From NCBI GenBank assembly GCA_947627175.1, contig CANQVA010000007.1:1050-65049 (forward strand): a stretch of 64,000 bases of DNA, written 5' to 3'. How positions within the stretch are numbered: the first letter of the stretch is position 1; every line of letters begins with the position of its first letter. Shown one piece after another: positions 8,361 to 53,124 of the stretch. Below the pieces are notes generated by a model. It saw nothing but the letters and a program-made list of their open reading frames with translations, ran no database searches and was not told the origin of the DNA. Source of the stretch: an uncultured Ruminococcus sp. GTDB taxonomy: Bacteria > Bacillota > Clostridia > Oscillospirales > Ruminococcaceae. The position numbers were made by a program, and so were the translations under genes.

Positions 8361-8444
8361 GCGGATATGGCGGAATAGGCAGACGCGTTGGCTTCAGGTG
8401 CCAATCGGGGCAACTCGGTGCAGGTTCAACTCCTGTTATCCGCA
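8361..8444 (+). tRNA. tRNA-Leu(CAG)
   Basis: Acceptor GCGGATA/TATCCGC. Anticodon stem TTGGC/GCCAA with loop TTCAGGT (anticodon CAG). Long variable arm and T-loop GGTTCAACTCC. CCA is not encoded. Confidence 0.9.
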
Positions 8445-8482: not shown

Positions 8483-8520
8483 AAAAAAACGGCTGTATAT
8501 TTTACAGCCGTAATTTTTTT
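8483..8520. terminator. bidirectional terminator shared by tRNA-Leu and the convergent uptake operon
   Basis: ACGGCTGTA (8489-8497) pairs with TACAGCCGT (8503-8511). A-run upstream and T7 downstream. The stop codon of the minus-strand ATPase (8502-8504) lies inside the stem. Confidence 0.7.
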
Positions 8521-9623
8521 AATATATCATCAGTTTGAATAAGAAGTCCGAATTTTTCGGCAGTTTCAAGCAAAACGTCATTGCCCTTGTTCATAGTCCC
8601 CCATTTGTTACAAGTATTTATTACAGCAGAACATTTTTTCATTATCTCCAGTGCTTTTTTTACAGATAAATCGCTTACAGGTTCAAAAGCCTTTTCTATA
8701 ACTGTTTCGACTGCAAGTGACATAATTACAGGATATTCAATGTCATTTTCATGAACGACACCTGCGGAAAATGGTATTCCCATACGCTGTAAACGCCGAT
8801 AAACAGATATACCGTCACCGCCTCCCGATATAACAAATATCTGCGGTTTTCCTTGTGGACGTTCCAGTTCTGCGGAGCAATAATAATGATTAAAATTTTT
8901 ATTATTCATGTTATAAAGTCTGCTGATATAGTCACCTGAAAAAATTTCTTCAGGCGTGCCGTTTTTTTCTGCCATACCGTTATTTATGCAGATAATACGG
9001 TCAGAAACTTTCTGTGCAAGGTCAAGTTCATGCAGTGACATAATTACTGCAAGATTTTTTTCTTTCACAAGTTTTTTCAGTATATTCAGAAGTTCAAGTT
9101 TATGATGTATGTCAAGAAAAGATGTAGGCTCATCAAGTACAAGTATTTCAGGTTCTTGACATATCGCCCTTGCAAGCATTACACGCTGTCGCTGTCCGTC
9201 GCTTATACAGTTGAAATCAGTGTATTTCAAAGACTCTACACCGACAAGTTTCATCGCTTCATCAGTTTTTTTACTATCATTTTTTGAAAGTATTCCAAGT
9301 CTGTTTGTATACGGATAACGCCCCGATTCAACTACATCTCCGCAAGTCATAAGTTCAGGTTCAATGCGTTCCGTCATTACGGCAGACATACTTCTTGAAA
9401 CTTCGTTACCGCTCATTTCACGGATATTTTTGCCATTTATAAAAACCGCTCCGCCCATGATTTCAAGCTGTTGCAATATGCTTTTAAGTATTGTAGACTT
9501 TCCCGAACCATTAGCACCTATAATAGTAAGTATTTCTCCGTGACGTACTTTAAAATCAATATCACCGACTATTATTTTTTTTCCATACCCTACTGAAAGA
9601 TTTTCCGCACATATTACATTCAT
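8502..9623 (-). CDS. FecE/BtuD-type ABC ATPase with an extra ~125-aa C-terminal domain
   Basis: Walker A GANGSGKST, signature ISDGQRQRV, Walker B ILVLDEP, H-loop SLHEL within the first ~250 aa. An added alpha/beta-looking domain follows (IFVISGGGDG...IPFSAGVVHEND...AVINTC). Confidence 0.85.
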   Translation of the reverse strand: MNVICAENLSVGYGKKIIVGDIDFKVRHGEILTIIGANGSGKSTILKSILQQLEIMGGAVFINGKNIREMSGNEVSRSMSAVMTERIEPELMTCGDVVESGRYPYTNRLGILSKNDSKKTDEAMKLVGVESLKYTDFNCISDGQRQRVMLARAICQEPEILVLDEPTSFLDIHHKLELLNILKKLVKEKNLAVIMSLHELDLAQKVSDRIICINNGMAEKNGTPEEIFSGDYISRLYNMNNKNFNHYYCSAELERPQGKPQIFVISGGGDGISVYRRLQRMGIPFSAGVVHENDIEYPVIMSLAVETVIEKAFEPVSDLSVKKALEIMKKCSAVINTCNKWGTMNKGNDVLLETAEKFGLLIQTDDILKKLRL

Positions 9624-9624
9624 T

Positions 9625-10638
9625 TCACAATTTCCTCCGCTGTTTTTTAAGCATTATCCACATTACAACAGGTGAACCGAATACTGCTGTAACTGAACTT
9701 ATACTCAATTCTACAGGTGAAAAAAGCGTCCTTGCTATCAAATCACAAAAAAGACAGAAAACTGCTCCGCCAAGAAAAGACGCAGGAATTATAATTATCG
9801 GTTTTGCCGTTCCGAAAAGGCTTTTGACAAGATGCGGTACAGCTATCCCCACGAATGAAACAGGCCCTGCAAAAGCCGTTACACAGGCAGAAAGCAAGCT
9901 GGACAAAAGAATAAGTTCCGCACGGAATAGTTTTATATTTACGCCCATATTTATAGCATATCCCTCCCCCATTTGATACGCACTCATAGGTTTTGACATA
10001 AGAAATGCACACACAAGCAAAACAAATGATATAATGGAAATTACTTTTATATCGTCCCAATCCGTTCCCGAAAAAGTTCCCATAGACCAGTTATGAAGAT
10101 TGACAATGTTTGAATCATCCGCAAAGGTCACTATAATATCAGTCACAGCAGAACATATGTAACCAATCATTACACCGCTTATTATCAGAACTGACATTTT
10201 TTTTACTCTTCCCGAAATAATAAGAATAAATCCCATTGACATAATTGAACCGATAAACGCAGAAATTACAAGTGACGCTGAATTGAGAATAATTCCCCTG
10301 CTTAGAAAAAATATCATCACTGCCGCCGAAACAAGTTTTGCACCCGACGAAATTCCGAGTATAAAAGGCCCTGCAATGGGATTTGAAAAAAACGTCTGCA
10401 AAAGAAAGCCTGACAGCGATAACGCTCCGCCGAGAATCAAAGCCGATGTAATTCTTGGCAGTCTTATTTTGAATATTATATTATACTCTGAAATATCATT
10501 GCTTTTTCCGAAAAGTATGTCAATAACCTCATTCAGCGAAAATTTTACACTTCCTGATATAAGATTTAAAAAAAACAGTATACACATACAAGTAAGCAGA
10601 ATAAGAAAGCCTGTGAAATAACGTGATTTTTTATTCAT
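9625..10638 (-). CDS. FecCD/BtuC-family ABC permease
   Basis: Polytopic 337-aa protein with typical FecCD features (RLPRI, GxxLSLSG, GPVSFVGIAVPH). Confidence 0.85.
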   Translation of the reverse strand: MNKKSRYFTGFLILLTCMCILFFLNLISGSVKFSLNEVIDILFGKSNDISEYNIIFKIRLPRITSALILGGALSLSGFLLQTFFSNPIAGPFILGISSGAKLVSAAVMIFFLSRGIILNSASLVISAFIGSIMSMGFILIISGRVKKMSVLIISGVMIGYICSAVTDIIVTFADDSNIVNLHNWSMGTFSGTDWDDIKVISIISFVLLVCAFLMSKPMSAYQMGEGYAINMGVNIKLFRAELILLSSLLSACVTAFAGPVSFVGIAVPHLVKSLFGTAKPIIIIPASFLGGAVFCLFCDLIARTLFSPVELSISSVTAVFGSPVVMWIMLKKQRRKL

Positions 10639-10649
10639 AATTCCTCCAT

Positions 10650-11792
10650 TCAGTAAAGTCTGTGCATAAATTCAAGCTGTTTTTCAGTATCCGCTTTACC
10701 GGTGACTATAAGATAAATGTCATGTATCATTTCAGACGCTCCTGTTGTCTGCTGAAACATATTTTTTTCCGTACACCATACATTATTATTTTTTACGGCA
10801 CGGAAATCCGCAAGCAGTTCATTTTTTTCAATAAGCTGTGAAACGTTTTCAAGCTCTCCGTCGATTGTACTATTATATATTATATAATCTGCGTCCTTTG
10901 CTTTCTGATAGAAAGATTCCATTTCCATATTCATTGTTGAAAGGGCATTGTCCTCAATATTCAGGTCATCTTCCGTAAAAATATATCGTCCTCCCGCAAG
11001 TTCTATCATTTTTGAAATATAGTCATCAGGCTTGCGGATATTAGCATATCCGTTAGATGTTATATAGAAAAATGCAACTGTTTTCCGTTCGTTTTCGGGA
11101 ATATCTGTATCTTCTGATACTTCACCGAAAATTTTCATTTTTTCATTGAAAAATTCTTCTGCTTCTTTTTCACGTCCCATAATAAGACCGTAAAGTTTTA
11201 TCCATTCAAGCCGCCCGAGGGGGTGAGTTTCATAGCTTGACCGCTCAACCATTACGGGCACATCAAGACTTTCAAGCTGTTCCTTTGTTTCGGGGCTATG
11301 ATAAATCATTGTCGATTCAAGAGCAAGTCCGCAGTTTTCAGAAAGTATTGTTTCATAGTCAGGCGTGCTGTATTTCCCGACATACGTCATATTTCCGCTT
11401 TCAATGGCATTTTGTACAGACGGCAGACTCCAGTCACTTAATTTTGTAGAAGTCATTTTTACTTCATCAAGTGAACCTATACCGTCGAACAAATCCATTG
11501 ATGACGATGCGGCAACATATATATTTTCTACAGGTTGATGTATTACTGTAATATCACTGTCTGTTTCGGGTTCAGGTACACCCTCCGGAACAAGCAGAAA
11601 TTTCTGACCGTCAGCTATATTTATTTCATAACTTCCGTCGTCAAGAGAATACACCGAGAACTGTTCCGCATATTCAAGACTAATTTTGTTTTTTGAATGA
11701 ACATTTTCTGTAGATGTCTTTGCCGTACCGCACGAACAGCAAAAAATATTAAATACTATCAGCGGAATTATAAATTTAATTTTACTAATCAT
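10650..11792 (-). CDS. lipoprotein, type-III periplasmic-binding-protein (BtuF/FhuD-like) substrate-binding component
   Basis: Signal peptide with Cys-rich lipobox region (IFCCSCG). Position ahead of the FecCD permease and ATPase. 4-nt overlap with the upstream gene. Confidence 0.7.
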   Translation of the reverse strand: MISKIKFIIPLIVFNIFCCSCGTAKTSTENVHSKNKISLEYAEQFSVYSLDDGSYEINIADGQKFLLVPEGVPEPETDSDITVIHQPVENIYVAASSSMDLFDGIGSLDEVKMTSTKLSDWSLPSVQNAIESGNMTYVGKYSTPDYETILSENCGLALESTMIYHSPETKEQLESLDVPVMVERSSYETHPLGRLEWIKLYGLIMGREKEAEEFFNEKMKIFGEVSEDTDIPENERKTVAFFYITSNGYANIRKPDDYISKMIELAGGRYIFTEDDLNIEDNALSTMNMEMESFYQKAKDADYIIYNSTIDGELENVSQLIEKNELLADFRAVKNNNVWCTEKNMFQQTTGASEMIHDIYLIVTGKADTEKQLEFMHRLY

Positions 11793-12697
11793 AATTTTAC
11801 AATCGTAGACGAATCGAAATAAAGTGTATATTCTATTTCATGAGGTGTACTCATTGCAGTAGTATCGGCTGATACAGGCATTTTAAAATCAAACGATGAT
11901 ACGGGAATTTCAAATGTTGAATTTTCTACTTCCGATATAGGCAGATATTTTTCACTATCAACAATCATATAATCATAATTACTACTGTTCCATATTATTT
12001 TTGCCGTTGCCACGCCGTCTGCAATAGTCAATTGAGTATGCGGTAATATGCTTGCTTTTCCCGAACCGCCCTCAAGTGATACTTCAATTGTGTAATCGCC
12101 GTCAGTAAGTCCCAATGATTCAACAGTATTTACTGTGCCGTCCGCAAAGGCATCTGATGGGAGAGAATCTGCACGGAAAAGTATTGTGCGGTCATACCAT
12201 TTTTCTTTTTTGTCGCTGAATGCCGTGCAGTCTATTCCCATGTCAAGAGCCTCAACCGGCACTGTGAACTTATGAACGCCGTTATCTTCCACAAAATCTA
12301 TATATTCACTTTCATCTGCCGTTTCAGCTTCCGCACCTGTTCCCATAAAAAGATACCTGTAGCCTGTTCCGCTCATAGTCATAACAGCAGACATTTTGCC
12401 TTCCTTGACAGTAAGTTCACACGCCGTTATTTTAAACATTGAAGAACTTGAATTTACTTCAATCGGATATATTCCGTCCTTTATTTCGTCTGCATAAACG
12501 GGTGTCATTCCCTCTTCCACTACTTCAACAGGTGCAACTGTTCCGCCCTGAAAATCAACATTTTCTTCACTTTCAGCAACTTCTTCCTGTTCCGTAACTA
12601 ATGCTGAACTTTCTGTTTCTGATGACGTACTTTCACTGCATGACACAGACATTGATGCAAATACGCACATCATACATAATAATAAAATCTTTTTCAT
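11789..12697 (-). CDS. surface lipoprotein of unknown function with two homologous ~100-aa beta-rich modules
   Basis: Lipobox SVSC, then an acidic linker. Module 1 begins DGIYPIEVNSSSSMFKITACELTVKEGKMSAVMTMSGTGYRYLFMG. Module 2 begins DGDYTIEVSLEGGSGKASILPHTQLTIADGVATAKIIWNSSNYDYMIV. Confidence 0.7.
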   Translation of the reverse strand: MKKILLLCMMCVFASMSVSCSESTSSETESSALVTEQEEVAESEENVDFQGGTVAPVEVVEEGMTPVYADEIKDGIYPIEVNSSSSMFKITACELTVKEGKMSAVMTMSGTGYRYLFMGTGAEAETADESEYIDFVEDNGVHKFTVPVEALDMGIDCTAFSDKKEKWYDRTILFRADSLPSDAFADGTVNTVESLGLTDGDYTIEVSLEGGSGKASILPHTQLTIADGVATAKIIWNSSNYDYMIVDSEKYLPISEVENSTFEIPVSSFDFKMPVSADTTAMSTPHEIEYTLYFDSSTIVKL

Positions 12698-12749
12698 AAA
12701 TACCTCACATTAAAACAGCGGAAAGAAAATTTCCCTCCGCTATATTTTT

Positions 12750-13787
12750 TTATTTTATTGAATCAATAGCAGTCTGTGCATGGTCAACATAAATCTGTCT
12801 TATATCCTCATTTTCGCCCAGACCCCTTAAAATACACTCTACTTCATAGCCTTCCGCCTCAAAAACAGACTTCCATGAATCTTCTTCATCGCCTGCCATA
12901 TCGTTGTTTGCATGGTCACCACAAACTACCATAAGCGGTTCAAGGACAACCTTTTCATATTCACCATCTTTAACTTTTGCAAGTATGGTGTCAATTGAAG
13001 GTTCAGCCTCAACTGTTCCTATGAAATAATTTTCATATCCGTCGGCAATAAGTAAATCCTGCATTTTCTGATAAACGCCGTTTGACTCAGCCTCTGTACC
13101 GTGACCCATGAAACATATAGCTGTCTTTCCGTCATCATACTCGGCAGTCCAGTCAACTATTGCCTGCTCAACTCGCTTGAAATCGTCGTCACTTGTAAGA
13201 AGTGGTTCACCAAAAGCAACTTTTTCAAAAGCGTCTGAATACTGTGCAACTTCATCAATGATATCATTGTATTCAAGACCATTCATAAGGTGAGTTGGCT
13301 GTACAACAAGATTCTTTACTTCATTTGCAACAGCTCTGTCAAGTGATGCCTTTACATTATCTATAAGAACGTCATCACGCCTTTTAACGTGGTCAATGAT
13401 TATATCAGCAGTAAATCCACGCCTTACAGAATAATCAGGGAACGCCGTTTCAAGTGCATTTTCAATTGCACCTATAGTAAGACGGCGACTATCGTTAAAG
13501 CTTGTACCAAAACTTACAACAAGCAATTCATTTTCACCGATTTCGTTCTGATTTCTTACATTATCCAGAGACGCATCACCGGTATCATAATTTTCTTCGT
13601 CCTCTGATGTTTCTGCATCTGATTCTTCGGCATTTTCCGTTTCAGATTCAGATTCAGTTTCAGCCACTGTTTCGGAAACTGATGATTCAGAAACAGAACC
13701 GCTTTCGGAAACTGATGAATTATTATCTCCGCAAGCTGTAAACAATGTGCTTGCCATAGCAAGACAAAGTATAGTTAATTTTTTCAT
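12750..13787 (-). CDS. exported lipoprotein with a CbiK-type (class II chelatase) domain
   Basis: Lipoprotein signal MKKLTILCLAMASTLFTAC, then a ~60-aa Ser/Glu-rich linker. CbiK-like LLVVSFGTSFNDSRR, VVQPTHLMNGLEY and FMGHGTEAESN, so both chelatase His motifs are retained. Confidence 0.75.
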   Translation of the reverse strand: MKKLTILCLAMASTLFTACGDNNSSVSESGSVSESSVSETVAETESESETENAEESDAETSEDEENYDTGDASLDNVRNQNEIGENELLVVSFGTSFNDSRRLTIGAIENALETAFPDYSVRRGFTADIIIDHVKRRDDVLIDNVKASLDRAVANEVKNLVVQPTHLMNGLEYNDIIDEVAQYSDAFEKVAFGEPLLTSDDDFKRVEQAIVDWTAEYDDGKTAICFMGHGTEAESNGVYQKMQDLLIADGYENYFIGTVEAEPSIDTILAKVKDGEYEKVVLEPLMVVCGDHANNDMAGDEEDSWKSVFEAEGYEVECILRGLGENEDIRQIYVDHAQTAIDSIK

Positions 13788-13831
13788 AAGTAATTCAATC
13801 CTTTCTGTTATACAAAAAGGTAATCAATTGT

Positions 13832-13861
13832 AAAAAAAGCCTTCCGCACACGGCAGAAAGC
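13832..13861 (-). terminator. riboswitch expression-platform terminator
   Basis: On the minus strand GCTTTCTGCCG-TGTG-CGGAAGGC is an imperfect hairpin followed by T7, about 45 nt before the RBS/ATG at 13787. Confidence 0.55.
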
Positions 13862-13939
13862 ATTGCAAAGCAGACCGTGTGTAAACACAGCCTAAAAAAC
13901 AGTACAATCAATACCTCGTGACCTGAAAATAATAATATT

Positions 13940-14155
13940 TTCTGTACCAACATTCCGGCAGGTTTCCTGACTCAAGGTTCATCGTATACGGCAAGCCTTC
14001 CCGACTGAATATCAGTGACTTCACCATGAAAAATCACAGCAAAAAGCCGTACACTCCCCAATCACAGTGACGAGTTCGCACAGGATTCACACCTGTTTCC
14101 CTTTTACCTTTTGACCCCGCAGAAAGCGGACAAAAGCACCGGACTGCTATTTAAT
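13940..14155 (-). promoter_or_regulatory. cobalamin (B12) riboswitch
   Basis: On the minus strand: AAGGGAAACAGGTGTGAATCCTG (rc of 14083-14103), CACTGTGATTGGGGA, and B12 box AGTCAGGAAACCTGCCGG (rc of 13955-13972). It lies in a 478-nt non-coding gap. Boundaries are approximate. Confidence 0.85.
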
Positions 14156-14177
14156 TTTTTGTGATATCACATATATT

Positions 14178-14206
14178 ATTATAGCAGTATTCACAAACAA
14201 ATGCAA
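14178..14206 (-). promoter_or_regulatory. promoter of the riboswitch-controlled uptake operon
   Basis: TTGCAT (rc 14201-14206), 17-nt spacer, TATAAT (rc 14178-14183). Confidence 0.65.
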
Positions 14207-14265: not shown

Positions 14266-14889
14266 CTATTTTGTCATATAAAGTAAGGCATTACAAATTG
14301 CCGCCGCAACGTTGCTACCACCTTTACGTCCTTTTGCGACTATGTACGGCACGCCCGTCCGCATTATCATTTCCTTTGACTGTATAACATTCACAAAACC
14401 AACAGGCACGCCTATAACAAGTTCCGGAATAAAAGTCTTATTTTCTATGTGTTCACAAAGTCTTATCAAGGCAGTTGGAGCATTTCCAACCGCATATATA
14501 ATCGGTCTTTTAAGTTTGCTTGCCTTATCAACAGATGCAGACGCTCTTGTTGTGCCGTTTCTTTTCGCACATTCGGCAACGTCACTGTCAGCCATAAAAC
14601 ACATTGCCTCACAGCCAAGTCTTTCAAGTGCTTTTTTGTTTATTCCTGATTTTGTCATGTTCGTATCAGTGACAATTACTGCACCTTTTTTAAGCAAATT
14701 GACTGCATGGTCAATGACATTTTCCGAAAAACACATATTATTATAATAATCAAAATCGGCAGTTGTATGAATTACCCTCATAACAACAGGCTTTATATCG
14801 TCCGCAAGTTTTCTGTCACCGAGTTCACATTCTATTATTTCAAAACTTCTCTTTTCTATTTCGTCGGGCAATACATATTCAAGTTCCAA
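14266..14889 (-). CDS. cbiC: cobalt-precorrin-8 methylmutase
   Basis: VIHTTADFDY, VTDTNM, AVGNAPTAL motifs. 207 aa. Lies within the cob cluster. Confidence 0.9.
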   Translation of the reverse strand: MELEYVLPDEIEKRSFEIIECELGDRKLADDIKPVVMRVIHTTADFDYYNNMCFSENVIDHAVNLLKKGAVIVTDTNMTKSGINKKALERLGCEAMCFMADSDVAECAKRNGTTRASASVDKASKLKRPIIYAVGNAPTALIRLCEHIENKTFIPELVIGVPVGFVNVIQSKEMIMRTGVPYIVAKGRKGGSNVAAAICNALLYMTK

Positions 14890-14890
14890 A

Positions 14891-16354
14891 TTATTTCACT
14901 CCATTTTCAATAATTCTGTAAAGCATATCCATATTTATATTGTTTCTCACACTGTCAGCAAGTATGTCAAACTGCTTTTCCTTATATTCCCGACGGTCTG
15001 AATTTCCGCCCATATAATTTATGCCTTTTTCTTCAAAAAGTCTGCGTACTATTCTTTCGGAAACACTGTCAAAAATCCCGTGAACGTAACAACCGTAAAC
15101 ATTATTTTTATATGAACCTCCGCAGGACGTTAAAGTATTACCCATGTTTTCAGTAATTCCCATATGTATTTCATATCCCGAAAACTCAGCACCTGAAAGA
15201 CACGAAAAAAAACCCTCTATATCAAGAAACTTTCCGCTCACTTGTGACTGATTTTTTTCTCTGCTGAAAACCGTTGTACAATCAAGAAGATTCATTCCGT
15301 CAATACTTCCGCCGTTTTCTGTTTCAAGGGGGTCTGAAATTTTTCTTCCGAGCATCTGATACCCTCCGCATATAGCAAAAATCGGCACACCCTTTTCCGC
15401 ACGTTTTTTTATCATTGCTTCAATACCGTTTTCACGAATCCATTTCATATCGGAAATTGTGCTTTTAGTTCCCGGAATTATTATCATATCGGCTTTTTCA
15501 AGTTCTGTATATTTTGTCACATAGCGAACGCTTACACCGTCATATTGTGAAAATACGTCAAAGTCCGTAAAATTTGATATTCGTGGCAGTCTTATAACTA
15601 CAATGTCAATAATTCCGTTGCTGTTGTTTTCAAGTTTATGCGAAAGGCTGTCCTCATCCTCAATATCACAGTTTATATACGGCACTACACCGAGAACGGC
15701 TTTATTGCTACGCTGACGCAGAATGTCCACACCGCTGTTAAACAGCGATTTGTCACCCCTGAATTTATTCACAACAAGCCCTTTAACAAGATTGCGTTCA
15801 TCAGATTCAAGAAGATTAAGAGTGCCGATAAGCTGTGCAAAAATACCGCCCCTGTCAATATCGCCCACAAGAAGTACGGGAGATTCAGCAAGTTTTGCCA
15901 TACCCATATTTACAATATCGTCTTGTTTCAGATTGAGTTCTACAGGACTTCCTGCACCCTCTATTACTATTATATCGCTATGTGCTGAAAGTTCATTGTA
16001 CGCTTTCATAATATCAGGAATAAATTCTTTCTTTCTCCTGAAATATTCCCTTGCACTCATATTTCCTATTGGTCTGCCGTTTACTATAACTTGTGAGCCG
16101 GTATCAGTTGTAGGTTTAAGCAAAATAGGATTCATAAGCGGTGACGGTTCTGCACCTGCCGCTTCAGCCTGCATTGCCTGTGCCCGTCCTATTTCACTGC
16201 CGTTTCTTGTTATGTACGAATTAAGAGCCATATTTTGCGATTTGAACGGTACACACAAATAACCGTCCTGTCTGAATATTCTGCAAAGTGCGGCAGTAAA
16301 AAAACTTTTTCCGACGTTTGACATCGTCCCTTGAATCATTATAGATTTAGCCAT
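14891..16354 (-). CDS. cbiP: cobyric acid synthase
   Basis: N-terminal IMIQGTMSNVGKS P-loop and a C-terminal GATase-like domain (ICGGYQMLG). 487 aa. Confidence 0.9.
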   Translation of the reverse strand: MAKSIMIQGTMSNVGKSFFTAALCRIFRQDGYLCVPFKSQNMALNSYITRNGSEIGRAQAMQAEAAGAEPSPLMNPILLKPTTDTGSQVIVNGRPIGNMSAREYFRRKKEFIPDIMKAYNELSAHSDIIVIEGAGSPVELNLKQDDIVNMGMAKLAESPVLLVGDIDRGGIFAQLIGTLNLLESDERNLVKGLVVNKFRGDKSLFNSGVDILRQRSNKAVLGVVPYINCDIEDEDSLSHKLENNSNGIIDIVVIRLPRISNFTDFDVFSQYDGVSVRYVTKYTELEKADMIIIPGTKSTISDMKWIRENGIEAMIKKRAEKGVPIFAICGGYQMLGRKISDPLETENGGSIDGMNLLDCTTVFSREKNQSQVSGKFLDIEGFFSCLSGAEFSGYEIHMGITENMGNTLTSCGGSYKNNVYGCYVHGIFDSVSERIVRRLFEEKGINYMGGNSDRREYKEKQFDILADSVRNNINMDMLYRIIENGVK

Positions 16355-17381
16355 TCAAAATCCTCCTCAGTGCTGATACAAGAATAATATTTTCCTCATG
16401 ATTTCTGACAGCAGTCCTGAAAAAACCTTTTTCAAGTCCTCTGTAATTACTACAATTTCTTATCAGAATTTTATCCCTTTCAAGAAGTACATCAAGAGGT
16501 AAATCACTTTTGAAAAAAATAAAATTTGCCTCCGGTTGAAATACTTTCAGTCCCATTTCTGAAAATTCATTTATAAGAAACTCACGTTCTTTTCTGATAA
16601 GTTCAACAGTTTTCAATAAATAATCAGTTTCGCCAAGTGCAGAAATTCCTGCGGACTGTGCAGGCACGGAAACACTCCAATATTGCCCTGTATGCTGTAC
16701 TTTTTCAGCTAATTCACTGCTTCCGAAAACAGCATATCCAAGTCTTAAACCTGCCATGGCATATATTTTTGTGAAAGCCTTCAGAATAATTATTTTACTG
16801 TTAAGAAAATTATGTGAACTTTTATTTTTTCCGTCACATACAAAGTCCATAAAGCACTCGTCACATACAAGTATAATATCATTTTTCAGGCATTTTTCAG
16901 CGATATTTTCAAGCAAAACGGAATTTACAGTTTTCCCTGTGGGATTGTTCGGACTGCAAAGAAAAACAATGTCAATATCATTTGTAAGCAGTTCGACAAA
17001 ATCAGGCATGACATCAAAATTATTTTTTTCAGACAAAATATATTCTGTGATTTTACAATTGTTTTCTGTAAGTGCTTTTCCGTACTCTGCAAAAGACGGC
17101 GAACAGATAACAGCATTTTCAGGTTTCATAGCTGCAATAATTCTGTATATAAGGTCGTCCGCACCGTTTCCGCAGACAATACAGCCTGATGGAACATTTT
17201 CATAATCTGAAATTTTCCCGACAAGTTCAGTACAAAAAGGGTCAGGATATTTGTTACATAAATAAGCCGATTCAATAACGGCATTTCTTACACTCTCAGG
17301 CATTCCAAGAGGATTGATATTTGCCGAAAAATCAAGATAATTTTTATATTTATATATATTTCCTCCGTGTTCGTCCGTCAT
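16347..17381 (-). CDS. cobD: threonine-phosphate decarboxylase (class I/II aminotransferase fold)
   Basis: HGGNIY start motif, PLP-enzyme layout, position between cbiB and cbiP. Confidence 0.8.
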   Translation of the reverse strand: MTDEHGGNIYKYKNYLDFSANINPLGMPESVRNAVIESAYLCNKYPDPFCTELVGKISDYENVPSGCIVCGNGADDLIYRIIAAMKPENAVICSPSFAEYGKALTENNCKITEYILSEKNNFDVMPDFVELLTNDIDIVFLCSPNNPTGKTVNSVLLENIAEKCLKNDIILVCDECFMDFVCDGKNKSSHNFLNSKIIILKAFTKIYAMAGLRLGYAVFGSSELAEKVQHTGQYWSVSVPAQSAGISALGETDYLLKTVELIRKEREFLINEFSEMGLKVFQPEANFIFFKSDLPLDVLLERDKILIRNCSNYRGLEKGFFRTAVRNHEENIILVSALRRILNG

Positions 17382-18343
17382 TTGAGTATTCCTCCGAAAA
17401 CCGTCATTCTGAAAATTATTCCCAATAAAAGCACTATCACTGACGACATATACATAAGTTTATTTACACGTCGTATATCTTCATTTTCAATCTTTCTCAC
17501 ATCGTCGCCTATGAATTGTTTTTTATGGAGTTCACCGAAATAATAAGCATCGCCTGCAAGCTGTACATTCAATGCACCTGCACATACAGATTCTGTCTGT
17601 GCTGAATTTGGGCTTGCGTGATTTCGTCTGTCACGTTTCCATATTCTGTATGCATTTTTTCCGTCAAATCCTAATATATAGGCTGAAAAAATCATGACAA
17701 CAGCCGTTATTCTTGACGGCAAAAAATTAGCAACATCGTCCAGCTTAGCGGAAAAACGCCCTATATCCGCATATTTTTCATTTTTATATCCAATCATTGA
17801 ATCCATTGTGTTTACTGATTTGTAGAAAAATCCGCCAATTGCTCCGAAAAGTGACATATACATAACAGGTGCGGTTACGCCGTCGCAAGTATTTTCCGCA
17901 ACAGTTTCAACAGTTGCCTTTATAATGCCTTTTTTATCAAGTACATCTGTATCACGTCCCACTATCATTGAAACAGCATATCTTGCCTTTTCAGTATCTC
18001 CCTCACTTACAGCATTGAAAACTTTCATACTTTCCGTTTTAAGGCACTTCGGGGCAATCATATAATAACACATTATCCCTTCAATGATAACGCCGATATT
18101 GAATTTATAACAGAAAATCAGAATTATAAGCGGTATTCCTACTGAAAACAAAATGACCGTCATTGCAAGAATTATTCCGCCTAAACGCAGTTTATTCGGC
18201 ATTGATTTTCTGATATTTTTCTCCATAAATGAAATAAGTCTGCCTATTGCCCTTATAGGGTGCGGGAGTTTATAAGGGTCGCCGAGCAGGCAGTCAATTA
18301 AAAAACCGATAACAAGCGGTGCAGTTAAAATAATACTCTTCAT
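17378..18343 (-). CDS. cbiB: adenosylcobinamide-phosphate synthase
   Basis: LLGDPYKLPHPIRAIGRLI signature. Membrane protein of 321 aa. Confidence 0.9.
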   Translation of the reverse strand: MKSIILTAPLVIGFLIDCLLGDPYKLPHPIRAIGRLISFMEKNIRKSMPNKLRLGGIILAMTVILFSVGIPLIILIFCYKFNIGVIIEGIMCYYMIAPKCLKTESMKVFNAVSEGDTEKARYAVSMIVGRDTDVLDKKGIIKATVETVAENTCDGVTAPVMYMSLFGAIGGFFYKSVNTMDSMIGYKNEKYADIGRFSAKLDDVANFLPSRITAVVMIFSAYILGFDGKNAYRIWKRDRRNHASPNSAQTESVCAGALNVQLAGDAYYFGELHKKQFIGDDVRKIENEDIRRVNKLMYMSSVIVLLLGIIFRMTVFGGILK

Positions 18344-18897
18344 ATTTCCTCCGATATGGTTATTTTTCTGTCACTGTATTCAGTGACAAAACCATGACCG
18401 TTTTTTACCTGCCAATCATAATAATTTCTATGTGGAATTGCAAATTTTTCCATTATTGACATAATTGTTCCGCCATGAACAACAAATGAAAGTTTTTTGT
18501 CACTGTATTTTCTGACCGTCTTAATAAAAATATCAATGCACCTTTTACGAAAGTCATGCGGATTTTCACCATAAGGAAAAGTATCTATGCCGTTGCTATC
18601 AATCCATTTCTGATAGTCGGGATTTTCTGAAAGTTCAATATAATTTTTCCCCTCAAAGTTACCAAAATCACATTCACGCAAATCGTCGCATATAATAATT
18701 TTTTTATCAGGATATATAATTTCTGTCGTCTGAATACAACGTTTCATTGGACTTGAAATTACTATATCACAGTCAGGATATTTATTGTTTTTTATTTCTT
18801 CTTTTCCCTCTGTACACAATTGCTCATCAGTTCTGCCTATGTACCTTTTTTCAATATTTCCTACTGTTTTTCCGTGACGTATAAAATTTATAATCAT
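18340..18897 (-). CDS. cobC: histidine-phosphatase family, alpha-ribazole phosphatase
   Basis: FIRHGKTVGN (RHG motif) and HGG later in the protein. ATGA start/stop overlap with the upstream gene at 18894-18897. Confidence 0.75.
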   Translation of the reverse strand: MIINFIRHGKTVGNIEKRYIGRTDEQLCTEGKEEIKNNKYPDCDIVISSPMKRCIQTTEIIYPDKKIIICDDLRECDFGNFEGKNYIELSENPDYQKWIDSNGIDTFPYGENPHDFRKRCIDIFIKTVRKYSDKKLSFVVHGGTIMSIMEKFAIPHRNYYDWQVKNGHGFVTEYSDRKITISEEI

Positions 18898-19280
18898 ACA
18901 TTTTTCCCCTTTATATACGTCCCTATTCCGCATATTACCCTTACAACACTACAAGAATTTTCCGCAATGATACAACCGCACTTTCCGCACATCTCACGCC
19001 ATATTCTTTCACCCTTTTCAATGGGAATTATTCCACAGCCGACTTCATTCATAATAACAGTAATATCATCGTTTTCTGAACATAGTCTGACAGTAAATTC
19101 AACAGGGTCAATATTTTCGTCCATTAACCTCCTGATAAGAATATGATAATTCTTTATACACTTTGTTGTAAAGACTTCTGATATATTACATTTTTCACCG
19201 TCTTTAATTTCTGATATGCCAAATTCTGAAACGGCAAATTTCGTTTTTCCCTGATAAACTCCCCCGATAATCATTTTCAT
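18894..19280 (-). CDS. short CobU-like paralog lacking the guanylyl-histidine segment
   Basis: IIGGVYQGKT P-loop. The C-terminus VIMNEVGCGIIPIEKGERIWREMCGKCGCIIAENSCSVVRVICGI aligns with VIVTNEVGNDGISYEKGTEEYIACMGKINRKIAEAAENVIECVYGI of the full CobU at 20044-20565. GGGAGGTG RBS before ATG 19280. Confidence 0.65.
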   Translation of the reverse strand: MKMIIGGVYQGKTKFAVSEFGISEIKDGEKCNISEVFTTKCIKNYHILIRRLMDENIDPVEFTVRLCSENDDITVIMNEVGCGIIPIEKGERIWREMCGKCGCIIAENSCSVVRVICGIGTYIKGKNV

Positions 19281-20053
19281 TTTATAAGCACCTCCCATAA
19301 GCAAGCGGAAATTACAGCCGAAGCAAGTACAGATATTTCACACACCTGCAAAAACCAACCGCAAATATCCCCCGTAATTCCGCCGAAAGTCTTGTAAGAA
19401 AATTTTCTGTAGTAAATCATCACACATACAGCTGTAATTATACTTATAGTCCCTGAAAAACAGTCAGACAGAATCATTCCCGAAAAACACATCATAATAA
19501 AAAATACCATTACAGCCATAATTATTTTTTTGTGAGCAGGTTTCACAAAGTTTTTAAGACTGCTTTCCGATTTTGCAGGTTTAAAAAAAATTGCCGAAAG
19601 TCCGCTCATAGACCTTGAAAGCACAAAACCACAAGCAACAATAAAAGCTGTTTTCCATTTATCCAATTGCGAAAACAACGCAGTCTGAATAATAAAATAC
19701 ATACACAGATGAATTACTGCAAATGCTCCTATATGTGAATCTTTCATTATGGAAAGACGTTTTTCAATATCTACGTATGATGACTTTGCATCAGTAACAT
19801 CACAGAAACCGTCAATATGAATACCGCCCGTTACAATAACCGGTATCATCGTCGAGCCTGCTCCAAACAGAAAAGAATTGATATTCAATTTTATACATAT
19901 AAACCGCCAAAGCAGAAAAATTCCCCCGATAACTGCACCTATCAGCGGAAAAAAACAAAGGGCATAACGCCTGTTTTCCTCTTTCCATTCAACACGTGGC
20001 ATTGGTATGCGTGAATACATAAGAAATGCAGAAAAAAATGATTTCAATAACAT
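19277..20053 (-). CDS. cobS: adenosylcobinamide-GDP ribazoletransferase (cobalamin synthase)
   Basis: Polytopic membrane protein with FLMYSRIPMP near the N-terminus. The start at 20053 (MLLKSFF) overlaps the cobU stop. Confidence 0.85.
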   Translation of the reverse strand: MLLKSFFSAFLMYSRIPMPRVEWKEENRRYALCFFPLIGAVIGGIFLLWRFICIKLNINSFLFGAGSTMIPVIVTGGIHIDGFCDVTDAKSSYVDIEKRLSIMKDSHIGAFAVIHLCMYFIIQTALFSQLDKWKTAFIVACGFVLSRSMSGLSAIFFKPAKSESSLKNFVKPAHKKIIMAVMVFFIMMCFSGMILSDCFSGTISIITAVCVMIYYRKFSYKTFGGITGDICGWFLQVCEISVLASAVISACLWEVLIK

Positions 20054-20565
20054 AATTCTCCTTTCAGAACAAAAGGTATTCCATAAACACATTCTATGAC
20101 ATTTTCAGCGGCTTCAGCAATTTTTCTGTTTATTTTACCCATACAGGCAATATATTCTTCCGTTCCTTTTTCATAGGAAATACCGTCGTTTCCAACCTCA
20201 TTCGTGACTATAACAAGATGTTCTGCAATGCTGTCAAGATATTTAATATCTCTTATAATTTTTTCTGTAGGATTTATTATTCTGCCGTCAACAAACATCT
20301 CATTTGCACATAGATTTCCCATACATTCAAGCAAAACAACACACTTTTCAGGTAGAGTTATTTCACTCAGATTATTATATTTTCCTATTGTTTTAAAACC
20401 CTTTCCTTTACGCATTTCACGATGTCTTTCAATCGCCTGAAAAGCCTCATCACCGTATGGCTTCATAGTTGCAATGTAGAATTTTTTCCCCGAAAAACCG
20501 CATATTATCCTTTCAGCAAGTGAGGATTTCCCACATTTTGAACCGCCTGTTATAAGTGTAATCAT
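20044..20565 (-). CDS. cobU: adenosylcobinamide kinase / adenosylcobinamide-phosphate guanylyltransferase
   Basis: ITGGSKCGKSSLAE P-loop, IERHREMR His segment, TNEVG motif. 173 aa. Confidence 0.9.
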   Translation of the reverse strand: MITLITGGSKCGKSSLAERIICGFSGKKFYIATMKPYGDEAFQAIERHREMRKGKGFKTIGKYNNLSEITLPEKCVVLLECMGNLCANEMFVDGRIINPTEKIIRDIKYLDSIAEHLVIVTNEVGNDGISYEKGTEEYIACMGKINRKIAEAAENVIECVYGIPFVLKGELCY

Positions 20566-21611
20566 TTAAGTTCAACATACCTTTCCATGCCGATTTCGTC
20601 AAACCTATGGGCATTTCTGTAAAGTGAAACAGCACCGTCCAACAACGGCAACAACATTATACCGCCTGTACCCTCACCAAGACGCAGACCGGCATTTATA
20701 ACTGCTTTAAGCCCCATAGATTCAAGGAGTTTTATATCGGCAGGTTCGTCCGAAACGTGTCCGGCAAGCATATATTCAACACACAAAGCATTCATTCTAT
20801 AAGCAATAAATGCCGCCACCGCAGAAATTACACCGTCTATTATTACAGGAATATTATAAACTGCTCCGCCTAAAAAAAGACCTACCATTCCGGCAATGTC
20901 AAATCCGCCGACTTTTGCAAGAACTTCAAGCGGATTATCTTTGTCAGGACGATTAAACGCAATAGCACGTTTTATTGCAGAAATCTTTCTTTCAAGTCCG
21001 TCAGTTGTAAGACCTGCTCCACGTCCTGTTACTTCCTCAACGGGCATATTAAGAAGTACCGACGAAACTGCACTTGACGTTGTAGTATTTCCTATACCCA
21101 TTTCACCGGCAACAATAATTTTGAATCCCTTATTTTTCAGGTCTTGCACAATGTCAATTCCTGTACAGATTGCTTTTTCTGCCTGATTTATAGTCATTGC
21201 AGGTGAAACAGTTATATTATTTGTACCATAAGCAATTTTTCTGTTTATAATATTTCTGTTTTCTATATCGTGATTTATTCCTATATCAATTGATATAACG
21301 TCTGCACTGTAAACGTCTGCAAGGGCATTTATATTAGAATGTCCCTCTGCAATTGATACAGCACTTAACGCTGTAATTTCACTTCCCGTCTGCGTAACGC
21401 CCTCACATACAACGCCGTTGTCTGCACACATTATTACAACTGCTCTTTTTGAAATATCAATGTCATAAGTTCTCTGAACAGATGCTATTTTCTGAATAAA
21501 TTCCTCCAGCATTCCGAAACTTCCGAGAGGTTTTGCAATGCTGTCCCACTGTTTTTTTGCCGAAACCGCTGACAATTTGTCAGTCGGTTTTATTCTGCTT
21601 ATTCTATACAT
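20562..21611 (-). CDS. cobT: nicotinate-nucleotide--dimethylbenzimidazole phosphoribosyltransferase
   Basis: GEMGIGNTT motif, 349 aa, cluster context. Confidence 0.9.
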   Translation of the reverse strand: MYRISRIKPTDKLSAVSAKKQWDSIAKPLGSFGMLEEFIQKIASVQRTYDIDISKRAVVIMCADNGVVCEGVTQTGSEITALSAVSIAEGHSNINALADVYSADVISIDIGINHDIENRNIINRKIAYGTNNITVSPAMTINQAEKAICTGIDIVQDLKNKGFKIIVAGEMGIGNTTTSSAVSSVLLNMPVEEVTGRGAGLTTDGLERKISAIKRAIAFNRPDKDNPLEVLAKVGGFDIAGMVGLFLGGAVYNIPVIIDGVISAVAAFIAYRMNALCVEYMLAGHVSDEPADIKLLESMGLKAVINAGLRLGEGTGGIMLLPLLDGAVSLYRNAHRFDEIGMERYVELK

Positions 21612-22945
21612 TTTTTTCCTCCGTATTCAGCACAAGCACGTGCAAAACGTTCTGCAATTTCAATGTCTGTATAAAAATAAATGTGCGGAAAACCTGCATA
21701 CATTTTTTCACTGCATTTACAGCATTTCCATGACCTGCCGTCATGTTTTACAGCGGTAAGACTTTTTCCGCAGTCTGTACTGTCCCAATAATGAAACTCA
21801 TGTGCATTTATTCTGTTGCCCTTTTTAAAAAGCAGACTGTCATTTTCAGAATTAAGAGTAACATAACCGAACCGCTGAAGTCTGTCTGTTCTGTAAACAT
21901 ATGATTCAAAAATCCCTGCCATATTATAAATTTCATTATTTTTCTCTATGTATTTATGAAGATACATAAATCCGCCACATTCCGCAATTATCGGAATACC
22001 GCCATTTATAAGTGTTTTTACAGACTCACGCATTGAAACGTTGTCCGAAAGTTGTTCGGCATAAAGTTCCGGATAGCCTCCACACAGAATAAGTCCGTCC
22101 GCACATTCGGGAACACGTTCGTCAGCAAGAGGAGAAAAATATATTATTTTACAGCCGATTTTTTCAAGCAGTTCAATGTTATCCTTATATAAAAAACAAA
22201 AAGCCTTGTCCTTTGCCACTGCCACAACAGGCGGACTGTCTGATATTTTTTTAATATCAATCTCTGAAAATTCCGGAAATTTCCTTTCAGAACAATTTAT
22301 AATTCTGTCAAGCAGAATATTTTTTTCCGCAAGTTCTCCTAAAAATTTAATTCTGTCCTTTATATCTGAAATTTCGTCAGCCGTCACAAGTCCGAGGTGA
22401 CGGCTTTCAACTGTGTATTTATGAACAGGCAGAAAACCGAAATAATTCGTATTAAATTCACTACATATTTTCTTTGCAGACGGAACAAGCTTTTCAGTAA
22501 GTCTGTTGAAAATAACTCCACATATATTATTAGGCACTCTGTACGTAAGAAAACCTTTTATTACTGCACCTATAGAATCACTCATACCCTTACAGTCAAC
22601 AATAAGAATAACATTTGTATCAGTAATTTCAGAAACTGAATAAGCCGAGCCTTTGCCGTCTACTCCGTCATAAAAGCCCATAACCCCCTCAATTACTGAA
22701 ATATCACTGTCTTTGCCGTTTTCATAAAGTATATATTTGATTGTATTTTCATCACAAAAAAAAGTGTCAAGATTATGTGAATCAGTTCCTGTTATTTTCT
22801 CATAGAACATAGGGTCTATATAATCAGCACCGCACTTGAAAGATGATACTTTCATTCCACGTCTGCACAATGCCTCCATAATCGCACAGGTTATTGTAGT
22901 TTTTCCGCAGCCACTCCCCGTTCCCGCAATTATTATTCTCTTCAT
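21599..22945 (-). CDS. cbiA: cobyrinate a,c-diamide synthase
   Basis: IIAGTGSGCGKTT P-loop and a C-terminal glutamine amidotransferase (ECGGFMYL). Confidence 0.9.
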   Translation of the reverse strand: MKRIIIAGTGSGCGKTTITCAIMEALCRRGMKVSSFKCGADYIDPMFYEKITGTDSHNLDTFFCDENTIKYILYENGKDSDISVIEGVMGFYDGVDGKGSAYSVSEITDTNVILIVDCKGMSDSIGAVIKGFLTYRVPNNICGVIFNRLTEKLVPSAKKICSEFNTNYFGFLPVHKYTVESRHLGLVTADEISDIKDRIKFLGELAEKNILLDRIINCSERKFPEFSEIDIKKISDSPPVVAVAKDKAFCFLYKDNIELLEKIGCKIIYFSPLADERVPECADGLILCGGYPELYAEQLSDNVSMRESVKTLINGGIPIIAECGGFMYLHKYIEKNNEIYNMAGIFESYVYRTDRLQRFGYVTLNSENDSLLFKKGNRINAHEFHYWDSTDCGKSLTAVKHDGRSWKCCKCSEKMYAGFPHIYFYTDIEIAERFARACAEYGGKKCIE

Positions 22946-24114
22946 TTTATTTTCCTCTTTATCACAAACACCGGATTTTCTGCCGAAAACATAGTATGAC
23001 TACCGGCTTTCCGTGTTCTTGTAATGGCAATTTGAATAATTTCAGCATCAAAAACATTCATACACTCATTAAGCGTTTCAAGTGAAACAGCCGTTGCAAC
23101 TATTTCGGCATACGGATTCAATCCGATAACATATTTTACTATATCCGCAATTTTTCCTGACGAACCACCTATGAAAACACAGTCCGGAACAGAAATATCT
23201 TTCGGAATATCATAAGGAAACGCACTGCCATACACATGGATATTGTCACAACTGAATTTTAAAGCGTTTTCAGTAGTAAGTTTCACGGCTTCTGAATTTT
23301 TGTCAAATGCATAAACACAACCTTCCGAACACTTCAACGCCATTTCAATCGATACCGAACCGGTACCGCAACCAATATCCCAGCAGATACTCTTTTTTCC
23401 GATATTAAGCCGTGAAACAACAACAGCACGAACTTCTGCTTTTGTCATCGGAATTTTAGTTCTTATAAAATCCCTATCATCAATCCCTGACGGAATAATA
23501 TAATTTTTATTTTCGGCAATGACCGCACATAAATTTTCTGTCTTGACGTTTTTCAAATTTTCTGCCGTTCCTGATATAATGCGTTCATTTTCATAACCGA
23601 GATTTTCACCGATAAAAATATTGACTTCACTCAGACCATACCGACAAAGTGTTTCACATATTACAGCAGGTGTAATTTTTCCTCCGAGAAGAAAAAAACA
23701 CATTTCGTTCTGCATGACATTTACGGCAATATTTCCGTTTTTTCCGTGTAGACTGACAAATTTCATATTTTCCCACTGTCTGCCAATCTTTGAACATAAA
23801 TAGACAGGTGTTGAAATTCCGCTGATAATTTCACAGTCTGTACAATATTCGGAAAGTTTTTTTGCTCCGCTGTAAAATCCGCAATCTCCCGACATTAAAA
23901 CCGCAATTTTATCACGTCCGCAGTTATTTATATAATCTTTTATTTTTTCTGCTGAATATTCACAAAACATATCTTTGTGAAGATGTTCAAACGGTTCAAG
24001 CATACGTTCTGCACCAATAAGAACATCAGCCGAATTTATAATTTCATATGCTTCACGGGTAATCGTTTTTATACCGTCCATACCCGTCCCGACTATGTAA
24101 ACCATTTCAATCAC
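22942..24114 (-). CDS. cbiET: fused cobalt-precorrin-7 C5-methyltransferase / cobalt-precorrin-6B C15-methyltransferase (decarboxylating)
   Basis: N-terminal tetrapyrrole methylase fold (IVGTGMDG) and a C-terminal SAM MTase (WDIGCGTGSVSIE). Confidence 0.85.
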   Translation of the reverse strand: MIEMVYIVGTGMDGIKTITREAYEIINSADVLIGAERMLEPFEHLHKDMFCEYSAEKIKDYINNCGRDKIAVLMSGDCGFYSGAKKLSEYCTDCEIISGISTPVYLCSKIGRQWENMKFVSLHGKNGNIAVNVMQNEMCFFLLGGKITPAVICETLCRYGLSEVNIFIGENLGYENERIISGTAENLKNVKTENLCAVIAENKNYIIPSGIDDRDFIRTKIPMTKAEVRAVVVSRLNIGKKSICWDIGCGTGSVSIEMALKCSEGCVYAFDKNSEAVKLTTENALKFSCDNIHVYGSAFPYDIPKDISVPDCVFIGGSSGKIADIVKYVIGLNPYAEIVATAVSLETLNECMNVFDAEIIQIAITRTRKAGSHTMFSAENPVFVIKRKIK

Positions 24115-28478: not shown

Positions 28479-28479
28479 T

Positions 28480-50486: not shown

Positions 50487-50500
50487 TATTGTTCCTCCGC

Positions 50501-52399: not shown

Positions 52400-52415
52400 A
52401 AATCAACCTCCTGCA

Positions 52416-52910: not shown

Positions 52911-53124
52911 TAAATAAACCTCCTTAAAATTGCTGTATGTAATGTAATACACCATTTCTATTATAACATATTATAAATAAAAATTCTATTCCTAATTTAG
53001 ACTAAATAAAGCGTTCATTTTAGTGCAGATTTCACAAACTGCAAGCAACAGTGAATGTATTTTCTAAATGTAATATTATATATCAAATTTACAAAAAATT
53101 CACCTATCAGTTTTTCTATATTTT

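Follow-up and report, generated by a model that had tools for sequence, protein, structure and literature searches.

What does an ATP-binding cassette (ABC) importer carry when its operon is placed under a cobalamin riboswitch, and what would two further lipoproteins encoded ahead of it contribute? These questions are raised by a five-gene operon at positions 8502–14206 of a 64,000-nucleotide (nt) stretch of DNA from an uncultured Ruminococcus sp. (assembly GCA_947627175.1, contig CANQVA010000007.1, forward-strand positions 1,050 to 65,049), which we refer to as the window and whose own coordinates are used throughout. In the order of transcription the genes encode a CbiK-fold lipoprotein, a lipoprotein with two predicted NEAT-fold domains, a substrate-binding lipoprotein, a FecCD-family permease and an ATPase. 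A riboswitch, a terminator and these five co-directional genes can all be read from the window sequence, and all lie on the minus strand. We consider it reasonably probable that the operon encodes a cobalamin-repressed surface capture and relay layer together with a type II ABC importer for B12-type cobalt tetrapyrroles (cobamides, cobinamide and other corrinoids). On the best reading, an Isd-like capture and relay system has been re-tasked to corrinoids or other cobalt tetrapyrroles.

To address how the operon is controlled, we examined its leader. A preliminary description made from the sequence had called this a cobalamin riboswitch, and the leader passes the Rfam covariance model: the aptamer (RF00174, 13940–14158, minus strand) scores 93.2 bits against a gathering score of 31.5 (E 7.4e-22) and aligns over model positions 1–189 of 189. 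Both strings quoted in that description, GGGAAACAGGTGTGAATCC and AGTCAGGAAACCTGCCGG, lie inside the aptamer, and the B12 box AGUCAGGAAACCUGCCGG is found at about 13971–13954 within the RF00174 alignment. The hairpin followed by seven T residues that had been pointed out there was recovered by the terminator scan as an expression-platform intrinsic terminator (13832–13861, minus strand), with a 9-bp GC-rich stem at 13861–13839 and the T7 run at 13838–13832. This hairpin is included in the minimum-free-energy fold of the expression platform; a clear antiterminator was not seen on folding the same segment. Because the terminator separates the aptamer from the start codon at 13787, the layout, the usual one for a transcriptional OFF switch, implies control of that kind, and the operon would therefore be expressed when cobamide is scarce.

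A putative sigma-70 promoter (14178–14206, minus strand) is plausible about 20 nt upstream of the aptamer, a position that we judged appropriate. Read by eye, it consists of TTGCAT at 14206–14201, a 17-nt spacer and TATAAT at 14183–14178, so that the hexamers named in the preliminary description are present as given. Its status as a promoter is weakly evidenced, because the –35 hexamer agrees with TTGACA at only 3/6 positions, the consensus scan did not call the site, and promoter-like sites in this AT-rich window are no commoner than in shuffled sequences (25 versus 19 ± 4.4). The –10 hexamer is perfect.

In the open reading frame (ORF) list, genes 1 and 2 are 52 nt apart, genes 2 and 3 overlap by 4 nt, and the two remaining gaps measure 11 nt and 1 nt, in agreement with the earlier statement that no gap exceeds 52 nt. 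The second gene (11789–12697, minus strand) encodes a 302-residue lipoprotein that we assigned from its internal repeat, from a family profile and from its predicted fold. The window protein itself has no Pfam or NCBIfam family match, and no match to the NEAT model PF05031 was obtained even at E ≤ 10. Homologues at 55–60% identity score 32–35 bits with PF05031, for which the gathering score is 32.8. A profile built from 44 sequences found Bacillus anthracis IsdX2-NEAT5 and IsdX1 as its best matches in the PDB, at only E 0.03–0.1. In the AlphaFold2 model the mean predicted local distance difference test (pLDDT) score is 87.9 and exceeds 90 in both domains, and the top Foldseek matches are all NEAT domains (IsdH-N2N3, IsdB, IsdX1, IsdX2-N5, Hal, Hbp2 and IsdA), with a probability of 1.00 and template-modelling (TM) scores of up to 0.69 per domain. 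Judged by this model, gene 2 encodes a divergent tandem NEAT-fold protein. The internal duplication that had been described was confirmed (E 6e-5). By contrast, NEAT proteins had been brought in earlier only as an analogous case, and the predicted fold is itself NEAT; the system would therefore be homologous, and not merely analogous, to the Isd haem relay of Gram-positive bacteria. A single-sequence PDB search had pointed to a designed 'Pizza' propeller (E > 0.02), a spurious match that was superseded by the profile and fold searches.

The two domains of this protein differ in their pockets. Domain 1 (about residues 70–178) has an SSSSMF lip and the motif K164xxW167Y168xR170, and domain 2 (about residues 195–301) has a GGSGK lip and H286xxxY290. 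We located the position of the haem-iron Tyr, the first Tyr of the canonical YxxxY motif, by alignment to IsdX2-N5 and by aligning the internal repeats to each other. In domain 1 this position is Lys164, with Lys in 80/81 sequences (KxxxY), and in domain 2 it is His286, with His in 78/81 and Tyr in 3/81 (HxxxY). In at least 96% of sequences, then, neither domain has the haem-iron Tyr, while the partner residues Y168 and Y290 are invariant across the family. The family-invariant SSSSMF, GGSGK and W167/R170 map to the lip loop and the last strand of each domain in the predicted secondary structure. These two elements form the ligand pocket of known NEAT domains, and the location of the invariant residues in them supports a role in tetrapyrrole capture; we judged pocket geometry from the secondary-structure positions of the conserved motifs. 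The pattern of substitution makes it most likely that the pocket has been re-tooled to a His ligand in domain 2. Three loci (L014, L018 and L020) have Tyr at the position equivalent to 286, and hence a canonical YxxxY, in the same riboswitch-gated operon, and this natural variant should be useful for ligand chemistry.

The first gene (12750–13787, minus strand) encodes a 345-residue protein of the class II chelatase family, which matches PF06180 with E 8e-81 and 271.6 bits in Pfam. It has a signal peptide and the lipobox LFTAC, followed by an acidic Ser/Glu-rich tether of about 65 residues, so that it can be called a CbiK-fold lipoprotein, as had been done beforehand. Its solved relatives in a PDB search are Salmonella enterica CbiK (1qgo, E 8e-44), FetB (9b86) and CbiKP (2xvx). 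The catalytic residues H229, E260 and H292 (in FMGHG, GTVE and GDH) correspond to His145, Glu175 and His207 of the S. enterica enzyme and are kept in 78/78 homologues, most of which also have a lipobox or signal peptide. The score with the NCBIfam equivalog NF047852 is below its cut-off (227 versus 400 bits). We rejected the idea that gene 1 encodes the cytoplasmic chelatase of the cbi pathway because of the lipobox, the acidic tether and fusions of its homologues to extracellular NEAT domains.

Directly 3' of the gene 1 stop codon the terminator scan found a GC-rich hairpin followed by TTTT (12715–12743, minus strand). Among related loci, 65/77 have a hairpin of –12 kcal/mol or stronger at the equivalent place, after the stop codon of CbiK. 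This conservation suggests that the CbiK protein is made in excess, as would be expected of an outermost capture component, and the hairpin may act as a partial terminator or 3' stabiliser that raises CbiK over the downstream genes.

The remaining three genes encode a type II importer. Gene 3 (10650–11792, minus strand) encodes a 380-residue class III substrate-binding protein (SBP) with a Peripla_BP_2 domain (PF01497, E 5e-29), gene 4 (9625–10638, minus strand) a 337-residue FecCD-family permease (PF01032, E 2e-80), and gene 5 (8502–9623, minus strand) a 373-residue ATPase that matches ABC_tran in Pfam and NCBIfam and has an additional C-terminal domain of about 120 residues. These assignments agree with the preliminary description, in which an SBP lipoprotein, a FecCD permease and an ATPase with an extra domain had been listed. 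The best NCBIfam match of the permease is BtuC, at 201 bits and under the equivalog cut-off of 334. Residues 4–367 of the ATPase match NF007082, 'corrinoid ABC transporter ATPase', over its full length at 203 bits (cut-off 537). NF007082 is the archaeal corrinoid BtuD model, and the alignment takes in the extra C-terminal domain (about residues 250–373; 8502–8870, minus strand). This domain had no match in the Pfam scan of the window protein; homologous ATPases in two divergent loci (L083 and L087) match PF27219 (MJ0874) there. From these scores the ATPase looks most like those of corrinoid-type importers and the permease only marginally so. The operon ends in a bidirectional terminator hairpin found by the terminator scan (8489–8511, both strands), which overlaps the gene 5 stop codon. 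Convergent with the operon is a tRNA gene of 84 nt (8361–8444, plus strand) that has a long variable arm, and this terminator is common to both.

The SBP gave a different picture. The gene 3 family profile has Lmo2184 (5joq) and IsdE as its best PDB matches; a PDB search with the single sequence returned no match. The model of the protein (pLDDT 89) has CeuE, HutB, Lmo2184, RhuT, PhuT and ShuT as top structural matches, and BtuF is not among the top 50. Since the SBP profile is nearest to Lmo2184 and IsdE, and its model is of the haem and siderophore type with no BtuF among the matches, the components outside the membrane seem to descend from a haem relay of the Isd type. The earlier designation as a BtuFCD-type importer therefore holds for the type II class of the transporter and fails for the SBP, which resembles haem and siderophore proteins instead of BtuF. 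The model also has an extra N-terminal beta-rich segment at about residues 35–93 (window 11515–11690, minus strand), before the Peripla_BP_2 domain, and the NEAT protein might dock on this segment.

We asked how far this arrangement extends to other genomes. For the NEAT-like family we counted 1,864 representatives at 50% identity (E ≤ 1e-3) and at least 583 confirmed matches in a collection with one genome per species. Our survey covers the best 80 of these, which show 53–73% identity and come from Ruminococcus and other Ruminococcaceae, Oscillospiraceae, Lachnospiraceae, Butyricicoccus (Butyricicoccaceae), Coprococcus, Enterocloster, Lacrimispora, Blautia and others. Denominators are the evaluable loci, which for the riboswitch are the 72 with enough upstream sequence. 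In this set the order riboswitch, CbiK, NEAT, SBP, permease, ATPase hardly varies. All of the evaluable loci (72/72) have a cobalamin riboswitch upstream; the gene immediately before the NEAT gene is CbiK in 76/77, and SBP, permease and ATPase genes follow in 64/65. All 7 sampled riboswitches, the weakest nhmmer matches included, were confirmed by the Rfam model at 76–119 bits. The genes are also found fused, CbiK to NEAT in three proteins (P0138, P0211 and P0245) and NEAT to SBP in five (P0127, P0129, P0132, P0139 and P0141) and at four loci (L030, L058, L076 and L089); fusions of this kind recur, and they appear to have arisen independently more than once. The synteny and the fusions indicate that CbiK, NEAT and SBP proteins act together outside the membrane. 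Together, the co-occurrence with riboswitch and importer and the fusions of the lipoproteins to each other or to the SBP support the idea, put forward in the preliminary description, that the two leading lipoproteins form a capture and relay layer for the importer. In public annotations the proteins of this module are called hypothetical, generic ABC binding protein or cobaltochelatase.

Divergent relatives (33–47% identity) have other architectures and retain a cobalamin riboswitch together with SBP, FecCD and ATPase genes. In each of three such loci the NEAT-like protein is encoded behind a cobalamin riboswitch and before the importer: a 1,965-residue protein of about 10 repeats (L083, 1268–7165), a fusion to FMN_bind (L087, 3816–5447) and a protein downstream of a double-CbiK protein (L088, 838–2733). 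L054 and L083 have no CbiK gene and keep the rest of the system. P0231 was left out of the context comparison because its contigs are too short. One further locus (L057, 8084–13129) has the riboswitch, CbiK and NEAT-like genes with no adjoining ABC importer, and the gene for an energy-coupling factor (ECF) S-component lies 1.5 kb downstream. The lipoproteins of this locus may serve an ECF-type B12 transporter.

The haem-like features of the extracytoplasmic proteins raise the question of whether the operon is an Isd-type system for haem, porphyrin or iron acquisition that has come under a cobalamin riboswitch, for example to coordinate the tetrapyrrole economy, with the CbiK protein acting like FetB or CbiKP. 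The closest characterised relatives of these parts do all belong to haem systems (the NEAT fold, Lmo2184 and IsdE, FetB and CbiKP), and domain 2 has the canonical YxxxY in three loci. However, we consider this very unlikely. A cobalamin riboswitch is present in 72/72 evaluable loci and in three divergent architectures, and repression of haem uptake by B12 would have no obvious logic. The system is linked to cob and cbi genes physically, and sometimes within one operon. At least 96% of sequences have another residue in place of the Tyr ligand in each of the two domains, and genes for a haem oxygenase, an IsdG-like protein or a sortase are absent from the operon.

The linkage to cobamide synthesis is direct in the window. 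An anaerobic cobamide biosynthesis operon identified with NCBIfam (14266–29160, minus strand; cbiL-D-F-G-H-J-ET-A, cobT-U-S-C, cbiB, cobD, cobQ, cbiC) is co-directional with the importer operon and ends 60 nt before its promoter region. No cobaltochelatase gene was found in this operon with NCBIfam, and it has no riboswitch of its own in the window. In the survey, 23/80 loci have cob or cbi genes no more than 10 kb away, variously arranged. Ring-synthesis cbi genes follow the ATPase gene directly on the same strand in L010, L058, L080, L065 and L083, and cobQ/T/U/S genes do so in L062–L064, L068, L074 and L087. The only CbiK in the 64-kb window is the gene 1 lipoprotein: with lenient thresholds, no second CbiK- or CbiX-like ORF was found there or within 10 kb in 89 loci, and this holds also where cbi ring genes share an operon with the importer. 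As side observations, the cobamide operon of the window starts directly at the stop codon of rsmA/ksgA (29160–30017), and two loci (L020, 23–257, minus strand; L069, 7222–7367, minus strand) have a second cobalamin riboswitch on the opposite strand, facing away from the transport operon. In L069 this second riboswitch heads a divergent cbiC-cbiD-cbiF... operon.

These observations bear on a further explanation, in which the system salvages precursors. The surface CbiK protein would insert Co2+ into an early ring intermediate (sirohydrochlorin/factor II or a related isobacteriochlorin), or would capture intermediates already loaded with cobalt, and the planar, carboxylate-rich product would pass from NEAT protein to SBP and importer and enter the pathway at CbiL, so that ring and cobalt are acquired together. 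An adjoining cbiL-to-cbiC operon that lacks a chelatase, and the failure to find a second CbiK- or CbiX-like ORF in the window or near the 89 loci, are what such a system would leave. The His/Glu/His site of CbiK is invariant (78/78), NEAT pockets and haem-type SBPs fit planar tetrapyrroles better than complete cobamides, and K164 and R170 at the domain 1 pocket are invariant. FetB, the closest characterised surface homologue, is a Co and Mn chelatase (PMC13065792), and tetrapyrrole-precursor salvagers, mostly Firmicutes, are a recognised class without a known uptake route (PMC6461909). We nevertheless regard precursor salvage as rather unlikely. A cytoplasmic CbiK or CbiX may lie elsewhere in the genome, since hem, cysG and cbiK commonly form a separate cluster, and salvage presupposes a supply of sirohydrochlorin in the gut or rumen. 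L087 and L088 pair the system only with the lower-pathway genes cobT/U/S, for which salvage of cobinamide or cobamide fits better, and L054 and L083 keep the system without a CbiK gene. It is likewise unlikely that the surface CbiK works as a cobaltochelatase outside the cell, such that a precursor from the environment is metalated there, relayed by the NEAT protein, imported and fed into the pathway at CbiL.

The invariant metal-binding triad could also be explained by scavenging of cobalt, in which case the CbiK lipoprotein would capture Co2+ at its His/Glu/His site and the metal would be imported in chelated form, with a tetrapyrrole or some other molecule as its carrier. Cobalt transporters are commonly controlled by B12 riboswitches, and the window contains no CbiMNQO-type cobalt transporter. 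However, FecCD type II importers carry bulky chelates and not ions, a tandem NEAT protein has no role in the capture of an ion, and the cell would need to release the cobalt from its carrier. We therefore hold cobalt scavenging to be highly improbable.

The cobalamin-repressed capture of corrinoids that we favour could work as follows. When intracellular adenosylcobalamin is low, the riboswitch would let transcription through and the five genes would be transcribed. The CbiK-fold lipoprotein, with its intact His/Glu/His site, and the tandem NEAT lipoprotein would be displayed on long tethers outside the membrane, and the internal hairpin may let the first of them exceed the products of the downstream genes. 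In the NEAT protein, domain 2, with HxxxY in a pocket re-tooled from the haem-type YxxxY, would provide a probable His ligand to cobalt. Domain 1 would have no metal ligand, because it has KxxxY in place of YxxxY, and probably serves for docking or pre-binding, as is seen in IsdH and IsdB. Of the NEAT domains in these two proteins, the N-terminal one docks the donor and the C-terminal one takes the haem. The surface proteins would capture the tetrapyrrole and hand it to the IsdE-like SBP, and from there it would pass to the FecCD permease and the ATPase.

Several points weigh against this proposal. The characterised relatives of all three extracytoplasmic parts handle haem, porphyrins or siderophores and not corrinoids: NEAT domains bind haem, and the nearest solved relatives of the SBP are Lmo2184, IsdE, HutB and CeuE, with BtuF outside the top 50. 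FetB and CbiKP bind haem or metalate porphyrins (PMC13065792). A porphyrin-sized NEAT pocket may be a poor fit for a complete cobamide with its nucleotide loop, and an invariant CbiK triad (78/78) would seem to exceed the needs of a passive corrinoid binder. In addition, the divergent P0263 (L084/L085) adjoins an ABC-2 exporter with no riboswitch nearby, so that the association with riboswitches is not universal in the wider family. The 80 loci are the best-scoring relatives, and for this reason the near-100% figures hold for that clade only and not for every NEAT-like protein.

As a comparison, a close counterpart in Bacillota is the Isd-type haem relay (Staphylococcus aureus IsdH/IsdB/IsdA/IsdC to IsdE to IsdF; B. 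anthracis IsdX1/IsdX2; Listeria Hbp2 to Lmo2184, the latter being the SBP of the Listeria NEAT/srtB locus). In both cases NEAT-fold surface proteins are encoded beside an IsdE-like class III SBP and a FecCD permease, and, as in IsdH-N2N3 and IsdB, the predicted two-NEAT unit would have a metal ligand in its C-terminal domain only. By contrast, the operon here is controlled through a cobalamin riboswitch and not Fur, its surface proteins are anchored through a lipobox and not by sortase, and KxxxY and HxxxY stand in place of YxxxY in a protein that fails the Pfam NEAT model. The leading CbiK lipoprotein, the linkage to cob and cbi genes and the absence of a haem-degrading enzyme also set the present system apart from Isd.

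The CbiK lipoprotein has its own counterparts in Porphyromonas gingivalis FetB/IhtB (9B86) and Desulfovibrio vulgaris CbiKP (2XVX), with which it shares the class II chelatase fold, export to the envelope, the catalytic residues and a FecCD-type transporter alongside. FetB has Co and Mn chelatase activity in vitro, and the paper describing it mentions no riboswitch (PMC13065792). Those two proteins are, respectively, an outer-membrane lipoprotein and a periplasmic protein of Gram-negative bacteria in a haem or porphyrin context, whereas the protein described here is a Gram-positive lipoprotein with a long acidic tether. No NEAT partner is reported for either of them; the present protein is NEAT-paired, sometimes fused to its partner, and B12-gated.

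The system we propose shares its functional logic with that of Bacteroides, where the riboswitch-controlled surface lipoproteins BtuG, BtuH and BtuJ are reported to feed BtuB (PMC6143338, PMC10404256, PMC13616437). In both cases riboswitch-controlled surface proteins would capture corrinoid and pass it to a transporter. The proteins appear unrelated: those of the operon have no Pfam or NCBIfam match to the Bacteroides families and are of the NEAT (predicted) and CbiK types. Delivery would differ as well, since the Bacteroides proteins deliver to an outer-membrane TonB-dependent transporter, whereas here delivery would be directly to the SBP and ABC importer of a monoderm. With the BtuFCD/BtuCDF systems of Escherichia coli and Halobacterium the operon shares a type II FecCD permease and ATPase and control by a cobalamin riboswitch. 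Unlike those systems, it misses the equivalog cut-offs (BtuC 201 < 334; BtuD 203 < 537), its SBP is not BtuF-like by sequence or structure, and it has two additional surface components. In another Firmicute, Dehalobacter restrictus, the riboswitch-controlled operon-2 brings a chelatase together with putative corrinoid ABC transporters; this operon is induced by corrinoid starvation, and the role of its chelatase is unexplained (PMC4285132). That chelatase is of the cytoplasmic CobN/Mg-chelatase type, and the operon contains CbiZ but neither NEAT nor CbiK lipoproteins.

Taken singly, the components are of known kinds, namely a cobalamin riboswitch, a NEAT fold, a class II chelatase and a type II importer; what is new is their conserved combination, together with the apparently re-tooled NEAT pocket. 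We found no report that links NEAT domains or Firmicutes CbiK lipoproteins to corrinoids in the searchable literature, although a comparative-genomic mention in a subscription journal is possible. Matches for NEAT and corrinoid in the Dehalobacter literature turned out to be 'neat' in the sense of undiluted solvent, or iron-type S-layer NEAT domains.

Competition for B12-family cofactors shapes gut and rumen communities. To our knowledge, surface corrinoid capture systems are known only for Bacteroidota (BtuG, BtuH and BtuJ), and we know of essentially no study of corrinoid competition by the abundant Clostridia (Ruminococcaceae, Lachnospiraceae and Oscillospiraceae). If our proposal is correct, the operon would be a concrete and easily testable candidate for the capture of corrinoids or corrin precursors in Firmicutes. 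The NEAT domain, familiar from textbooks as the module with which Gram-positive pathogens pirate haem, would then serve for a second class of tetrapyrroles, and extracytoplasmic CbiK homologues would gain a physiological role. Pipelines that equate a PF06180 match with the cobalt chelatase of the pathway may mis-score B12 producers. Were extracellular chelation to take place, the operon would be the missing uptake route of tetrapyrrole precursor salvagers, with ring and cobalt obtained in one step, and many 'de novo B12 producers' scored by CbiK would depend on a shared precursor.

The remainder of the window consists of housekeeping genes. A three-gene cluster (48744–52955, minus strand) resembles an electron-bifurcating [FeFe]-hydrogenase, and a dockerin type I protein is encoded at 53385–54767 (plus strand), which suggests a cellulosomal Ruminococcus-like host.

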